From an uncultured Spirochaetales bacterium (GTDB lineage Bacteria; Myxococcota_A; UBA9160; UBA6930): DNA of 64,000 nucleotides. This document shows positions 44,339 through 52,164 of this stretch, piece after piece. The DNA lies in assembly GCA_964615365.1 (NCBI GenBank), contig CAZTOU010000006.1, positions 51,587 through 115,586 on the forward strand, written 5' to 3'. The notes under the pieces are model-generated. The model made no database searches. It was given only the letters and a program-made list of their open reading frames with translations, and was not told the DNA's origin. Both the position numbers and the translations under genes were made by a program. How positions within the stretch are numbered: position 1 is the stretch's first letter; each line of letters starts with the position of its first letter.

Positions 44339-45091
44339 GTGGATGCCGTGACCCAGGTCGCCGAATGCTGGCGGGAGGCGGGGCGCGTGGTCGTGCTCAC
44401 CGGCGCGGGAATCTCGACGGCATCCGGGATCCCGGACTTCCGCTCGCCGGGCGGACGCTGGGAGCGCTATCAGCCCGTCACGATCCAGGACTTCCTCGCC
44501 CACGAGGAGTCGCGGCGCGAGTACTGGCGCTACAAGAGCGAGACCTGGGAGTTGATCTCCTCGGCGGAGCCCAACCCCGCCCACCGCGCCCTGGCGGAGC
44601 TGGGGCGCGCGAACCGAATCCGTCTGCTGGTGACGCAGAACGTGGACGGTCTCCACGAGCGGAGCGAATTCCCCACCGATCGTCTGATCAACATCCACGG
44701 AACCGATTCCCGGGTCCAGTGCATGGGCTGCGGAAGGGAGGAGCCGCGCCAGGTCGGTCAGGAGCTCTTCGAGGCCGGCCAGCTGGTTCCCCGCTGTGAA
44801 TGCGGCGGACCCTTCAAGCCGGCCACGATCTCCTTCGGACAGAGTCTGGTCGCGGAGGATCTCCAGCGCTGCTTTGGCGAAGCGGCGCGCTGCGATTTCT
44901 TCGTCGCCGTCGGCAGCTCGTTGGTGGTGAGCCCGGTCAATCAGATGTTCGGCGAGGCAAAGGCGGCGGGTGCTCGCGCTGCGATCCTCACCTCTTCCGA
45001 GACGCCTTTCGACGACGCGGCGGACTGGAAGCTTTCGGATCCCGTCGAGGTCATCCTTCCCCTCCTACGCGACGGGGTCATAGCAAAGTGA
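44339..45091 (+). CDS. cobB: NAD-dependent protein deacylase (sirtuin)
   Basis: GTG start at 44339. [24 protein letters not shown], and the zinc ribbon CMGCG...CECGG. Confidence 0.9.
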
Positions 45092-46261: not shown

Positions 46262-46481
46262 CGGTCGCGCAGCGTACCACTGGATTCCCCGCACTTCCCC
46301 CGATCGCGAAATCGCGTTTCACGGCTCCGGCGAAGCGGCCGAATTCGCCACTTCCAGCCCTTCTGGGCGCGTTTTTCGTTTGACTCCCCGCTTGGAAGGC
46401 TTAACATGCGACGCTGCTGACCACGGCGTACCAAGCGCCGGGGGGATTGACGCCGAAGGATCGGCGTGTTGGAGAGGTTAA

Positions 46482-46694
46482 ATGGCAGCAAGAAGAAAGA
46501 AGGCAGCCCGGCGCTCGTCGAAGCCCGCCGAGCTCATCATCTCGAAGGCTCGAACCAAGGCGGCGGTCAAGAAGTGCAACGTAGGTCAGGAGTTCTACGG
46601 TGCCCTCGACGGTGCGGTTCGGGATATGATCAAGAGTGCTGAGGCTCGGGCGCTCGGGAACAAACGCAAGACGCTGAAGGCCGTCGATCTCTAG
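46482..46694 (+). CDS. histone-fold DNA-binding protein (alpha3-truncated bacterial type) with a basic N-terminal tail
   Basis: 70 aa. GGAGAGG Shine-Dalgarno 5 nt upstream. Tail MAARRKKAARRSSKP. ISKARTKAAVKK (alpha1) - NVGQ (L1) - EFYGALDGAVRDMIKSAEARALGN (alpha2) - KRKTLKAVDL* aligns with archaeal HMfB ...HAGRKTIKAEDI. A hairpin terminator follows. Confidence 0.7.
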   Translation: MAARRKKAARRSSKPAELIISKARTKAAVKKCNVGQEFYGALDGAVRDMIKSAEARALGNKRKTLKAVDL

Positions 46695-46719: not shown

Positions 46720-46748
46720 GGGCCCGCGGGAGGTCATCCCGCGGGCCC
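46720..46748. terminator. bidirectional hairpin terminator between convergent genes
   Basis: 12-bp stem GGGCCCGCGGGA/TCCCGCGGGCCC with a 5-nt loop. TCTTGCCT follows on the plus strand and TTTCACTT on the minus strand. Confidence 0.5.
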
Positions 46749-46777: not shown

Positions 46778-47923
46778 CTAGGCCGTGTGGTCGCGCGATC
46801 CGCCCTCGGTCAGGTTGTACCCGACCCGGAACAGGTGCTCGAAGGTCACCCGGCGCAGCACCTCGAGCGGATCGACTGCGTTCTCCCGAGAGAGGGTGTC
46901 CAGGCCGCGGCTCGTCAGCTCAGCGGCTCTCTCGATGGCCAGAGGCAGGGTCTCCGCATCACCCAGGGGCATGCGTTCCGCCACCGCGATCCGGTTGGCC
47001 AACGCCAGGAACGCGTAGAGAAGGGGGCGCTGCTCCTGCTCGGGAAGCTCCGCCAGCGCCCGGAAGATCGATCGCTCCGAGTGCGCCGTGACCGGAAGGT
47101 CCGGCATCCAGACCGGGAGGGGCCATTCCCCCACTTCCAGGAACTGGTCACCCTCGGGAAGCTTCGTCAGCGACTCCGGGCGAATGAAGCCGTAGATCCG
47201 CATGGACTCCTCCCAGGTGGGGAACCCCAGATCCTGCAGGCGGCCGGTGCGCCAGCGCATCGCCCATTCCTCGGCCTCCGACGGCAGCTCCCAGATCACG
47301 CCCTGGAGCAGGCGAAAGTAGACCCAGTAGTCGTTCTGGAAGAGGGTGCGAAGCAGGGATTCGACCTCCGCGAGGTCGTCCTTCTCGCGGAGTGCGAAGA
47401 AATGGAACTGGCCATCGATGGTGCGCGCGTGCGGCGGCGGCGTCCATCCATCCTCGCTGGAATGGAGCACCACGCCGATCCGCGACTGCAGGTGCAGCAC
47501 CAAGAGCTCCAGGTCCATGGCCCGGGCGGAGCGCAGCAGGGTCTCGTCGCCGGAATCGGCGCAGGCCTTGAGCCACTCGTCGAGCTTGGAGCGGTCGGGC
47601 GCGAAGTCCTGCCAGACGTCGAGATCCAGACAGACCGCGATCTGCTCCGTGGTGGCGTGAGCCATCAAGCTGCCGGCATCGTGCAGGCCCACAGCCTTCG
47701 CGGTGAAGCAGAACTCGGCTGGCGGCAGCGCCGGGATCAAGCGCTCCGGCTCCGGTGCCAGATCGATCAGCTCACTCCGCCGCGAGACCGGGGTCTGGCA
47801 GACCAGGGCCGTCTGGGCGTCGATGCTGAGCATCGCCATGGCGTCGCGAGCGGCCTCGCGGTCCTGGCGAGCGAGCTGGAGGATTCGGCGCACCTCGGGG
47901 GGGAGACTGGGGAGAGCCGCCAT
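46778..47923 (-). CDS. conserved-looking hypothetical protein, no domain recognised
   Basis: Only the last 381 codons of track ORF 46778..48817 are coding-like, from the ATG at 47923 (MAALPSLPPEVRRILQLARQ). Soluble, Trp-rich, acidic. Confidence 0.65.
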   Translation of the reverse strand: MAALPSLPPEVRRILQLARQDREAARDAMAMLSIDAQTALVCQTPVSRRSELIDLAPEPERLIPALPPAEFCFTAKAVGLHDAGSLMAHATTEQIAVCLDLDVWQDFAPDRSKLDEWLKACADSGDETLLRSARAMDLELLVLHLQSRIGVVLHSSEDGWTPPPHARTIDGQFHFFALREKDDLAEVESLLRTLFQNDYWVYFRLLQGVIWELPSEAEEWAMRWRTGRLQDLGFPTWEESMRIYGFIRPESLTKLPEGDQFLEVGEWPLPVWMPDLPVTAHSERSIFRALAELPEQEQRPLLYAFLALANRIAVAERMPLGDAETLPLAIERAAELTSRGLDTLSRENAVDPLEVLRRVTFEHLFRVGYNLTEGGSRDHTA

Positions 47924-48009
47924 GCCGCAGGATCCTAGCCCGCGTGGTCCAAGTGTCGACGTGGTATCTTCGCGGTTTTTCGCCGTGCGAGGGCAACGGG
48001 GATGACGGA

Positions 48010-49218
48010 TTGAACCGACAGATCTGGAGTCGGCTCGCGACGCCGCTTCTCTCTCGGCTCGCGATTCTCTCTGCCGCCCGCGTCGGGGTGCTCCTTCCGG
48101 TCGTCCTCTGCTCGGTCTCGGTGGCGCAGGCCCAGGATCCCCCGCCCGACGCGGTGGTCGCGGATCTTCCGTTCCTCGACTCGCCTCTTCCGAGCAGCGT
48201 CGTCGTCGATCTCGCCAGGGAGGCCGCAGCTCGTCCTTTTCCGCTGGTTCTCGACACCGGTGCCAGCTACAGCACGGTGACCGCGGGTCTCGCTCGTGAG
48301 CTCGGCGTGCCGGTCCGCTCGGCGAAGAGCTCCCCCTACCGGCGCGCCACCTGTCTGGGGCGCGACCTGCAGTTCCGGGTGGACGCGCGCCGTGGAGACA
48401 TGGTCTCGCCGACCGGCAGGGAGTTCGGGCTGCTGGGTGGGAACTTCCTCGTCGAATACGTCGTGGAGATCGATTTTCCGGACCGGCGGGTGCGCTTCCT
48501 GGATCCGGACCGCTACCGGGTTCCCGAGGAGGCAGCGTCTCCCGACGAGACCGTGATGCGGATGCAGCTGGTCTCGAACCGCCCCATCGTCGAGGTCGAG
48601 ATCGAAGGACATCCGGTGAGTCTGCTCCTCGACACCGGCGCCGCCTACGGCGTCCTGATCGGGGGGCGCGTCGCCCGCGCCGCGGGCCTCGAGTCCCTCC
48701 CCGCCGCAGGGCTTTCGGCCGCGGGGGTGCTGGGAGAGATCGGCGTGGAGTTCTCGGAGGCCAAGAGCGTCCGGGTGGGGTCCCTGGAGTTCCAGAACCT
48801 GCCGGTGATCGTCGCACCCCGCGGCCTCTACCAACAAGGCACCGCCAACGATTCGCTGATCGGATACGACCTGTTCTCGCAGCTCACCCTGCGGATCGAC
48901 TATCCCAGGAAGCGGGTGTGGCTGCGCCGCGATCCCGGGGTGCCTCCGATCTTTCTCGGCGCCGACTACACACTGGTGCGTTCGAGCGGAGCCCTGCTCT
49001 TCCGCGACGGGAGCAGCATCTTCGCCGCGGCAATCCTCCCGGGAGGCGCGGCGGATCGGATTGGTCTGCAGCCACAGGACGTGCTCGAGGGTTTCGATGC
49101 CAGCGACGAGGAATTCGATCCGGCGAGTCCTCACCATGCGATCGCGGGAGAAGGCCCGGTGCAGATCCGACGACGCGGAGAGGGCGGACGCTGGCGCCTG
49201 CTCCGCCTCCCACGCTAG
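48010..49218 (+). CDS. secreted tandem retropepsin-like aspartyl protease with C-terminal PDZ domain
   Basis: Two DTG active-site motifs (LVLDTGASYS, LLLDTGAAYG), each followed by a GLLGGNFL / SLIGYDLF flap-like motif. C-terminal PDZ-like ILPGGAADRIGLQPQDVL. The TTG at 48010 gives a good signal peptide (ILSAARVGVLLPVVLCSVSVAQA). The alternative GTG at 47944 would leave only 20 nt to the divergent gene. Confidence 0.75.
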   Translation: MNRQIWSRLATPLLSRLAILSAARVGVLLPVVLCSVSVAQAQDPPPDAVVADLPFLDSPLPSSVVVDLAREAAARPFPLVLDTGASYSTVTAGLARELGVPVRSAKSSPYRRATCLGRDLQFRVDARRGDMVSPTGREFGLLGGNFLVEYVVEIDFPDRRVRFLDPDRYRVPEEAASPDETVMRMQLVSNRPIVEVEIEGHPVSLLLDTGAAYGVLIGGRVARAAGLESLPAAGLSAAGVLGEIGVEFSEAKSVRVGSLEFQNLPVIVAPRGLYQQGTANDSLIGYDLFSQLTLRIDYPRKRVWLRRDPGVPPIFLGADYTLVRSSGALLFRDGSSIFAAAILPGGAADRIGLQPQDVLEGFDASDEEFDPASPHHAIAGEGPVQIRRRGEGGRWRLLRLPR

Positions 49219-50739: not shown

Positions 50740-52164
50740 ATGAGCGAGGTGCAACCCGATGGCGGCAACGCCGTGGATGCCGCGATTGCGGCCGGCTTCG
50801 CCTCCGCAATGGCCGAGCCGGCGCTCACGAGTCTCGGTGGCGGCGGATTCCTGCTCGCGAGGGGCGTGGAGGGCAACGCGATCCTCTTCGACTTCTTCGT
50901 CGATACCCCGGGCAGGGGTCTCCCGCCCGGCGATCTGGAGCCGCACTTCCTGCCGGTCACCGTGCGCTTCCCCGGCTCGGATCAGGTCTTCAATACCGGG
51001 CTCGGCTCCGCCGCGGTCCCGGGTAACCTCCGGGGCTACCTCCACGCCCACCAGCGGCTCGGCCGGCTGCCGCTCCGAGAGGTGCTGGCGCCTGCGATCG
51101 AGCTGGCCCGAGAGGGCGTTCGGCTCAATCGGCACCAGGCCTATTTTCTCGAGCTGCTGCGGCCGATCCTGACACTCACTCCGGCGGGCCGATCCCTCTT
51201 CGAGCCGGACGGGCGCTACCTCGGCGTGGGGGACTCTCTGGTGAACCCGGACCTCGCCTCCTTCCTCGAGGAGCTTCCCGCCGACCGGGGCCGCGACTTC
51301 TACAGCGGCGCCGTTGCGGAGCGGATCGGCAGGGACATGAGCGCCGGGGGTGGAACGCTCACCCGAGAGGATCTGGCCTCCTACAGGGTCGTCGAGCACG
51401 CACCCCTGGAGGTGCGGTATCGGGGCCATCGGCTGCTCACGAATCCCCCGCCCAGTGTCGGTGGCTCCTTGATCGCGCTCTCTCTCGGGCTGCTCGAGCG
51501 CAGCCCACCCGCCAGCTTCGGTGTGGACTCCGCGGATCATGCCGTGCGCATGGTCGAGGTCATGGAAGAGGTCGCGCGGCGCCGCGTCGGAGGAGAGGCT
51601 CCGCAGTTCGATCGCGGAACCACCCACGTGAGCGTCAGCGACGGACGGGGGAACGTGGCGAGCCTCACCACGTCCAACGGGGAAGGATCGGGGTACCTGG
51701 CCCCAGGCACGGGGATCATGCTCAACAACATGATGGGTGAGGACGATCTCCATCCGGAAGGGTTCTTCGCCTCCCCCCCAGCGGAGCGGGTGGCCTCGAT
51801 GATGTCTCCCTCGGTGCTTCTGTCCGGAGACCGGGTGCGACTGGTGCTCGGAAGCGGAGGGAGCAAGCGGATCCGGACCGCCCTACTCCAAGTGATCAGC
51901 AACACCGTCGATTTCGATCTCGGTGTCCGCGCGGCGGTCGAGCGGCCGCGCCTGCACTGGGACGAGTCCCAGGTCCAGGCGGAGCCCGGATTCCCACCCG
52001 CGGTGATCGAAGCGCTCGAGGGTCGGTGGCCCGTCAACGAGTGGACCGAGCGCAACGTCTACTTTGGCGGCGTGCACGCCGTCGCTCCCCAGGGGGCAGG
52101 CGCCGGTGATCCGCGCCGGGGCGGCGATGCCGGGGTGGTGGAAGCGCGACACGAGCGAGATTAG
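50740..52164 (+). CDS. ggt: gamma-glutamyltransferase-family protein
   Basis: GGNAVDAAIAAGF...; autoprocessing site region GTTHVSVSDGRGNVASLTTSNG; GIMLNNMMGEDD. No signal peptide at the ATG at 50740. Confidence 0.85.
   Translation: MSEVQPDGGNAVDAAIAAGFASAMAEPALTSLGGGGFLLARGVEGNAILFDFFVDTPGRGLPPGDLEPHFLPVTVRFPGSDQVFNTGLGSAAVPGNLRGYLHAHQRLGRLPLREVLAPAIELAREGVRLNRHQAYFLELLRPILTLTPAGRSLFEPDGRYLGVGDSLVNPDLASFLEELPADRGRDFYSGAVAERIGRDMSAGGGTLTREDLASYRVVEHAPLEVRYRGHRLLTNPPPSVGGSLIALSLGLLERSPPASFGVDSADHAVRMVEVMEEVARRRVGGEAPQFDRGTTHVSVSDGRGNVASLTTSNGEGSGYLAPGTGIMLNNMMGEDDLHPEGFFASPPAERVASMMSPSVLLSGDRVRLVLGSGGSKRIRTALLQVISNTVDFDLGVRAAVERPRLHWDESQVQAEPGFPPAVIEALEGRWPVNEWTERNVYFGGVHAVAPQGAGAGDPRRGGDAGVVEARHERD

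Follow-up and report, generated by a model that had tools for sequence, protein, structure and literature searches.

Results

A histone gene at a conserved locus

The sequence analysed here, referred to below as the window, is a 64,000-nucleotide stretch (positions 51,587 to 115,586) of contig CAZTOU010000006.1 from the GenBank assembly GCA_964615365.1, deposited as an uncultured Spirochaetales bacterium and placed by GTDB in Myxococcota_A (UBA9160; UBA6930). At 46482–46694 on the + strand it carries a short gene for a bacterial histone, which is the subject of this study. The genes around it are, in order, those for a beta-eliminating lyase (−), a SIR2-family protein (+), a GFA-family protein (+), an alpha/beta hydrolase (−), the histone (+), a DUF6178 protein (−), an aspartyl protease (+) and a NUDIX protein (+), with the histone gene divergent from the hydrolase gene and convergent with that for DUF6178. 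The gene encodes 70 amino acids (7.6 kDa, isoelectric point 10.8), ends with a TAG stop codon at 46692–46694 and translates as MAARRKKAARRSSKPAELIISKARTKAAVKKCNVGQEFYGALDGAVRDMIKSAEARALGNKRKTLKAVDL, the same product as in an earlier prediction made from this DNA without database searches (the original prediction). Lysine and arginine residues number 19 in the protein, against 6 aspartate and glutamate residues.

Homologues were sought by a word-indexed search of protein clusters, an exhaustive search of 50%-identity representatives and a search of GTDB species genomes. The word-indexed search returned 1,586 homologous clusters, of which the best 120 comprise proteins of 68–110 amino acids that are at least 80% identical; the exhaustive search returned 104 clusters, and a relative is encoded at 392 loci in the species genomes. 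Twenty-nine diverse members of the family were used for an alignment and profile (A1), while a closer alignment (A2) served for the search for loci. Orthologue counts, linkage and the ratio of non-synonymous to synonymous substitution (dN/dS) given below refer to the best 80 of the 392 loci, and counts for the promoter, the Shine-Dalgarno (SD) sequence and the N-terminal tail to 81 loci. Almost all of the best 80 loci come from metagenome-assembled genomes (MAGs) of uncultured Myxococcota or “Deltaproteobacteria”, the remainder being a few Planctomycetota loci and a single one of Eiseniibacteriota.

An in-frame TAA (46479–46481) abuts the ATG of the histone open reading frame (ORF) and the next in-frame start codon is that of M49, so the start is unambiguous and any product includes the basic tail. 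An SD sequence, GGAGAGG (46471–46477, +), lies 4 nt 5′ of the ATG, and 79 of the 81 orthologous loci have an SD-like motif. The G + C fraction of the three codon positions is 0.58, 0.48 and 0.75, in a window of 67.6% G + C. Thirteen metagenome contigs encode the identical protein with the same neighbours. Over the core (residues 17–70), comparison with the 80 orthologues gave a median dN/dS of 0.137 (pS 0.53, pN 0.11), and the core is 70–90% identical across loci where neighbouring proteins reach 45–60%. With over 1,500 homologous clusters and this dN/dS ratio, the ORF is a genuine gene under purifying selection, far beyond what chance would yield. The coordinates, the translation, the ATG, the SD sequence and the G/C-rich third positions reported in the original prediction are all borne out.

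Public annotation pipelines name near-identical homologues inconsistently, as “histone H3/H4”, “DUF1931 domain-containing”, “citrate lyase gamma subunit” or “hypothetical”. The DUF1931 label, used by NCBI for close homologues, expresses no more than a similarity of domains. In practical terms, Pfam-A misses this histone entirely and some pipelines give its homologues the name of a citrate lyase subunit. The more distant relatives (P0185, P0194, P0199, P0205, P0177 and P0153) include doublets of about 120 amino acids with two folds per chain resembling those of face-to-face (FtF) histones, a 260-amino acid protein with two C-terminal copies and a 160-amino acid form extended at its C-terminus by an acidic or coiled segment.

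The protein has an α3-truncated histone fold

Searched against the PDB, the A1 profile matched HTkC from Thermococcus kodakarensis (9F2C, E = 8.3e-15), HLp from Leptospira perolatii (9QT0, E = 1.3e-11) and HBb, also known as Bd0055, from Bdellovibrio bacteriovorus (8CMP, E = 7.6e-9; 8FVX, E = 2.5e-8). Weaker matches were obtained to HmvA (E = 3e-4), NF-YB (E around 0.03) and HMfA/HMfB (E = 0.17–0.29, over α2 and loop L2 only). The histone sequence used alone gave a marginal match to HTkC 9F2C (E = 0.0046). When the 29 members of A1 were scanned with Pfam, DUF1931 was reported for 13, CBFD_NFYB_HMF for 6 and Histone for 3, in every case below the gathering level.

An AlphaFold2 model of the monomer has a mean predicted local distance difference test score (pLDDT) of 83.9, rising to 90–95 over residues 21–70. 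Secondary structure assigned to the model with DSSP places a short helix α1 at residues 22–28 (46545–46565, +), where K22, R24 and K26 occupy DNA-contact positions in the alignment with HLp. Helix α2 spans residues 36–59 (24 amino acids; 46587–46658, +) and contains R56, the predicted tetramerisation arginine. It is followed by loop L2 and a one-turn α3 (residues 60–70; 46659–46691, +), a segment marked out by conservation that comprises N60, R62-K63-T64, the clamp residue D69 and the C-terminal L70. Both the RD clamp and the R-x-T-x(4)-D motif of L2 are thus present, as R62, T64 and D69, and α3 in the model amounts to a single turn (residues 67–69). Foldseek searches of the PDB with the model returned chains of HTkC, HLp and HBb as the top eight matches, with root mean square deviations (RMSD) of 0.9–2.0 Å, target-normalised TM-scores of 0.78–0.88 and a probability of 1.00. 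The next matches were the histone folds of NF-Y, H4, CENP-A and TAF proteins, at TM-scores of 0.3–0.5.

The protein therefore has a histone fold, made up of a short α1, a 24-residue α2, L2 with the R-K-T…D clamp and a one-turn α3. Profile and fold searches both recover histones, in agreement with the original prediction. The motif KRKTLKAVDL that it singled out is present at residues 61–70, the chain ends one residue past D69, and α3 is minimal. The original prediction aligned residues 17–70 with the archaeal histone HMfB, but the similarity to HMfB is weak and limited to α2 and L2; the convincing matches are to α3-truncated histones and not to HMfB.

A DUF1931 pseudodimeric histone of the Aq_328 type, with two folds per chain, was considered as an identity and ruled out, as the window protein is a single fold of 70 amino acids.

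Conserved residues point to a face-to-face histone

According to Schwab et al. 2024 (PMC11390915), α3-truncated histones have an α3 of 3–4 residues and an α2 that is 4–5 residues shorter than that of nucleosomal histones. Among them, FtF histones form toroidal tetramers and share the conserved residues R48, N52 and R54-x-T56-x4-D61 (hidden Markov model (HMM) numbering), and bacterial dimer histones of the HBb/Bd0055 type are defined by the absence of R48 and N52 (PMC11390915). The structural role of these residues has been described for two FtF proteins. In HLp, contacts to the opposing dimer run from R49, S52 and N53 to its F63, T61 and R55 (Hu et al. 2025, PMC12701072), while in HTkC R45 forms a salt bridge to the opposing C-terminal carboxylate and the R45A variant is a dimer (Schwab et al. 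2025, bioRxiv 10.64898/2025.12.06.692711).

The window protein has the dimensions of the α3-truncated group, with α3 at residues 67–69/70, an α2 of 24 residues and a chain that ends at L70. In the profile alignment R56 falls on HTkC R45 and HLp R49, the FtF arginine, and N60, two residues before the clamp arginine, is the FtF asparagine (HMM N52; HLp N53). Across the 29 diverse members of A1, T64 and D69 are invariant and R56, N60, R62 and L70 are at least 90% conserved. The pattern R-x3-N-x-R-x-T-x4-D-(hydrophobic) closes the C-terminus of 119 of 120 close homologues, and in all 120 the chain ends exactly one residue past the clamp aspartate. Profile scores are 58 bits for HTkC, 48 for HLp and 39 for HBb. 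The protein has each of the sequence signatures described for FtF tetramers.

We file the protein as an FtF histone and not as a Bd0055-type dimer on the grounds of the conserved R56 and N60, the R62-T64-D69 motif, the chain end one residue past D69 and the profile scores; judged by sequence, the FtF subgroup appears to be the better fit. It is likely, in our view, that this is a singlet α3-truncated bacterial FtF histone of uncultured Myxococcota, assembling into a homotetrameric torus around which about 60 bp of DNA would be wrapped, with added affinity for DNA from the tail.

A basic N-terminal tail with a conserved start

Residues 1–16 (MAARRKKAARRSSKPA; 46482–46529, +) form a disordered tail with 7 lysine or arginine residues and no acidic residues, for which pLDDT is 59–66 and no secondary structure is predicted. 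Such a basic N-terminal tail was part of the original prediction, which placed 8 lysine or arginine residues in the first 15 positions where we count 7. Among the 81 orthologues, tails are 10–19 amino acids long with a median of 7 lysine or arginine residues (47%), and none contains aspartate or glutamate. Lysine makes up 36% of tail residues, alanine 31% and arginine 14%, followed by glycine, proline and serine. The start M-A-A-(R/K)-(R/K) is present in all 81, and the first 5–7 tail residues are conserved within this clade, while more distant relatives occur both with and without tails (for example, MADMIISK…).

The tail had also been thought rare among prokaryotic histones. That view fits the older survey of Hocher et al. 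2023 (PMC10627809), in which most bacterial singlet histones lack long tails, but it does not hold for the FtF group, where tails with a positive charge occur in most bacterial members and Myxococcota is named as a host phylum (Schwab et al. 2024, PMC11390915). All 80 orthologues have the tail. It is not a rarity within its group and is already covered by published work; what the clade adds is a single nuance, the conserved start of the tail.

Bacterial histone tails are described in the literature as having no conserved sequence. Since the motif is nevertheless kept in 81 of 81 orthologues, the tail could conceivably be more than a generic polycation. One might imagine the MAA(R/K)(R/K)K motif (81/81, Planctomycetota and Eiseniibacteriota included) as a substrate for reversible lysine modification, such as deacetylation by the SIR2-family enzyme whose gene lies 1.4 kb upstream and, in four related genomes, right beside the histone gene in the same direction, an idea that we regard as very improbable. 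If it were true, these bacteria would possess, in the manner of eukaryotes, a layer of chromatin regulation that works through histone tails.

Transcription signals of the histone gene

A consensus scan located a sigma-70-like promoter upstream of the gene (46380–46407, +), with a −35 element TTGACT, a 16-nt spacer and a −10 element TAACAT, for which 0.0 occurrences are expected in shuffled sequences. Directly 5′ of the −35 element is a T-rich tract, CGTTTTTCGT (46370–46379, +), with T-run columns that are invariant in 7 loci and a possible role as an UP-like element. In the alignment of these 7 loci, where flanking proteins are only 50–85% identical, the −35 TTGACT, the adjoining upstream T-run and the CAT of the −10 element are all invariant. 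In 51 of the 81 loci, a TTGAC(T/A)-N16-TAnnAT-like pattern is found in the 200 nt upstream of the start, compared with a background of 0.0086 per 200 nt; 50 of these 51 keep the 16-nt spacer, and in 41 at least four consecutive T lie within 14 nt upstream of the −35 element. From its sequence context, the histone gene looks monocistronic and equipped with its own conserved near-consensus promoter.

Further upstream, an invariant palindrome, CGAATTCG (46340–46347, +), and a weak stem plus T-run (46353–46376, +) immediately before the invariant −35 element were also noted. The whole palindrome and stem region (46340–46379) is conserved across the loci with 50–85% identical flanking proteins and could serve to end transcription coming from upstream, or else act as an UP element or operator. 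In the 5′ untranslated region (UTR), just 5′ of the SD sequence, a perfect 7-bp inverted repeat forms the hairpin GACGCCGA-AGGA-TCGGCGT (46449–46467, +). It is kept in the closest loci, occurs as a tandem duplicate in L015, and could affect mRNA stability or translation.

A G + C-rich hairpin with a 12-bp stem, 11 pairs of which are G-C, begins 26 nt past the stop codon (46720–46748; no strand assigned), with a folding energy of −36.4 kcal/mol (z = −2.16). A scan scored it as terminator-like on the − strand, and on the + strand the U-tract is weak. Positioned between the convergent histone and DUF6178 genes, it is a probable terminator and possibly a bidirectional one. The original prediction had given the histone gene a hairpin terminator of its own; the hairpin is there, but with its weak + strand T-tract it may serve both convergent genes. 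Neither the UTRs nor the window as a whole gave a match to Rfam, and no tRNA was detected in the 64 kb.

The neighbourhood reflects inherited synteny

Three neighbours are linked to the histone gene at most of the best 80 loci: the alpha/beta hydrolase at 67, DUF6178 at 72 (no more than 600 nt away in 47) and NUDIX at 66. The DUF6178 gene (46778–47839, −; Pfam E = 5.6e-71) lies in a reading frame that is open to 48817 in the window, and gene calls on identical contigs are of 353–381 amino acids. A gene for a SIR2-family NAD-dependent deacylase (44339–45091, +) is found 1.4 kb upstream of the histone gene and is linked to it at 13 of 80 loci, being directly adjacent and co-directional at four (L019, L031, L056 and L057). 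Between DUF6178 and NUDIX, the window also carries a retropepsin-like aspartyl protease gene (Asp_protease_2 / gag-asp_proteas; 47944–49218, +). Because it is present in only 6 of the 80 related loci, this gene is a lineage-specific insertion into an otherwise conserved synteny.

At the four loci from other phyla (Planctomycetota and Eiseniibacteriota), the hydrolase, DUF6178, NUDIX and SIR2 genes are all absent. The neighbourhood is therefore one of inherited synteny and is no evidence of functional coupling. A functional link to DUF6178, the hydrolase or NUDIX was rejected for this reason, their retention at 66–72 of the 80 Myxococcota-type loci and loss elsewhere being the mark of vertical synteny. 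A link to SIR2, suggestive as the position of that gene is, was likewise rejected as unsupported: it is linked at only 13 loci, at 11 of which it forms one inherited block with the beta-eliminating lyase gene, so that synteny accounts for it.

Four of the loci (L010, L012, L025 and L032) come from MAGs titled “uncultured Spirochaetaceae” or “uncultured Spirochaetales”. Their hydrolase-histone-DUF6178-NUDIX synteny is the same as in the Myxococcota MAGs, which suggests that these taxonomic labels are wrong.

Discussion

Bacterial histones have been recognised only in 2023–2025 and, to our knowledge, just two have been characterised, HBb and HLp, both from lineages other than Myxococcota. The gene described here encodes a bacterial histone with a truncated α3 and a basic tail, and on this core point the original prediction was correct.

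Relation to known histones

HLp (PDB 9QT0/9QT1/9QT2; PMC12701072), which has the orthologue LA_2458 in L. interrogans, is among the closest known proteins and is a bacterial singlet FtF histone. It shares with the window protein a shortened α2, a one-turn α3, a lysine-rich α1 and a short disordered N-terminal segment; its R49, N53, R55, T57, D62 and F63 correspond, with identical spacing, to R56, N60, R62, T64, D69 and L70, and the model superposes on it at 0.9–1.1 Å with TM-scores of 0.87–0.88. The two differ in that identity is about 24%, the L2 motif is RTT in HLp and RKT here, and the tail here exceeds that of HLp in length and, by far, in basic character (16 amino acids, 7 lysine or arginine residues and the clade-wide MAA(R/K)(R/K)K start). 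The SMC and MAP neighbours of HLp are not at the window locus, where the alpha/beta hydrolase and DUF6178 flank the gene instead, and the host is an uncultured myxococcotal bacterium.

The archaeal HTkC (9F2C; PMC11390915) is the best PDB match by sequence, profile and Foldseek. Like the window protein it has the RKT motif, an end one residue past the clamp aspartate and an arginine, R45, aligned to R56. Unlike it, HTkC is thermostable, lacks an N-terminal tail, has glutamate at the position of N60 and coexists with nucleosomal histones. The resemblance to HMfA/HMfB and to eukaryotic H3/H4 extends to the histone fold, the RD clamp, the RKT motif in L2 and, superficially, to the basic tail of eukaryotic core histones, but the 16-amino acid tail has no sequence homology to H3/H4 tails, and TM-scores to H4 and NF-Y are 0.3–0.45. 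With its shorter α2 and one-turn α3, the window protein cannot engage in the four-helix-bundle stacking of (hyper)nucleosomes.

A proposed mechanism

HLp forms a stable tetramer with about 60 bp of DNA wound around it and protects fragments of about 35–70 bp from MNase (PMC12701072), and DNA also wraps around the HTkC toroid (PMC11390915; bioRxiv 10.64898/2025.12.06.692711). By analogy with these proteins, two monomers would pair as a handshake dimer, and two such dimers would close into a torus in which R56, N60 and R62 contact the opposing L2/α3 and R56 forms a salt bridge to the terminal carboxylate of L70. Some 60 bp of DNA would wrap non-specifically around the rim of this torus, which carries positive charge. 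Contacts to DNA are predicted for the start of α1 (K22, R24 and K26), for K30/K31 and for the L1–L2 bridge (K63 and T64). The contacts reported for HLp include A13, S14, K15, K17, K21, T27, G29, T56 and T57 (PMC12701072) and map here to K22, A23, R24, K26, K30/K31, V34, Q36, K63 and T64, which are the same or more basic.

The disordered 16-residue tail would project from the end of α1, beside the “paired ends of helices” DNA site. Since it emerges next to this α1 site, extra electrostatic binding is the simplest role for it, and it most likely adds non-specific electrostatic affinity for DNA or neutralises charge, as far as the analogy extends. The conserved near-consensus promoter suggests high expression and, with it, a role as a nucleoid-associated chromatin protein. 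The idea in the original prediction that it could, if abundant, be a major nucleoid protein draws on the analogy with characterised homologues together with this promoter.

Alternative readings

In the original prediction the protein was said to resemble the short histones of the HBb/Bd0055 type (PDB 8CMP, 8FVX, 9EZZ); HBb is strictly dimeric and bends DNA. On such a reading the window protein would stay dimeric and bend or coat DNA, with no wrapping. Both proteins belong to the α3-truncated superfamily, are bacterial, similar in size and share the RKT…D clamp; the profile matches HBb at E = 7.6e-9, and the model superposes on it at 1.2 Å with a TM-score of about 0.79. Several observations weigh against our preference for an FtF tetramer. 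Identity to HLp and to HBb is only about 23–24%, and the monomer fold matches both equally well. The lysine of RKT, conserved in this family as K63, has been described as a usual feature of bacterial dimer and nucleosomal histones that is not strongly kept among FtF histones (PMC11390915), and dimer-type histones are known in Myxococcota_A (PMC11390915). We infer the tetramer from conserved residues, the predicted structure being that of a monomer. The Foldseek E-values are weak, 5e-3 at best, which follows from the shortness of the protein (a domain of about 55 residues), and the histone sequence scanned alone gives no Pfam match even at E ≤ 10. As to the tail, the first 6–7 residues of HLp are simply disordered in its crystals (PMC12701072). 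What tells against a dimer is that HBb has serine and aspartate in the columns of R56 and N60, both of which are at least 90% conserved here, and that the FtF proteins HTkC and HLp outscore it. HBb also lacks a basic tail and extends past the clamp aspartate, with 5 residues following the aligned DI (8CMP is aligned to 61/66 and 8FVX to 59/64), whereas all 120 close homologues of the window protein end one residue beyond the clamp. We consider a dimer of the HBb type quite unlikely, and the nearest relatives are the FtF histones rather than HBb.

The histone fold might also serve something other than bulk chromatin, for instance as a low-abundance or condition-specific DNA-binding factor (in stress, sporulation or development) or as a partner of DUF6178. 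Several classes of prokaryotic histone, such as the ZZ and RdgC histones, are poorly expressed (PMC11390915), HTkC coexists with nucleosomal histones that are dominant (PMC11390915), and DUF6178 is the convergent neighbour at 72 of 80 loci. Set against this are a near-consensus −35 element, a conserved 16-nt spacer and a T-tract maintained in a 67% G + C genome, a core conserved well beyond the neighbouring proteins, and the high expression of the characterised FtF homologues in Leptospira and Thermococcus, while the loss of the neighbourhood in the Planctomycetota and Eiseniibacteriota loci makes the DUF6178 linkage look like inherited synteny. On balance, such a non-chromatin role appears unlikely. 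A tblastn search of the 64-kb window with E. coli HupA and IhfA found no HU/IHF homologue, and the family HMM run against the six-frame translation found no second histone-fold ORF there, a sample too small to speak for the whole genome. That the protein might instead be CitD, the acyl carrier protein (gamma subunit) of citrate lyase, as some JGI records name close homologues, has a practically negligible probability: the NCBIfam model PRK13253 gives a weak match (E = 0.12; 12.6 bits against a cut-off of 65) that is confined to the C-terminal half of the model, the genes for the alpha and beta subunits of citrate lyase are not found nearby, and the strong profile and fold matches are to histones.

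Significance

The protein, which we take to be an FtF histone, belongs to an already described group, for which FtF tails, phylum distribution, tetramer formation and DNA wrapping were published in 2024–2025. In the accessible part of the supplement text of Schwab et al. 2024, neither the clade's sequences nor the name “Myxococcota” was found. The current picture of bacterial histones is unchanged by this locus, which fits the descriptions of Schwab et al. 2024 and Hu et al. 2025. The locus represents a very large and tightly conserved clade, almost all of it from uncultured Myxococcota. Should the protein prove abundant, chromatin built on histones would be the rule across a major lineage of environmental bacteria. 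The clade would then also offer a natural system for asking what a bacterial histone tail does.

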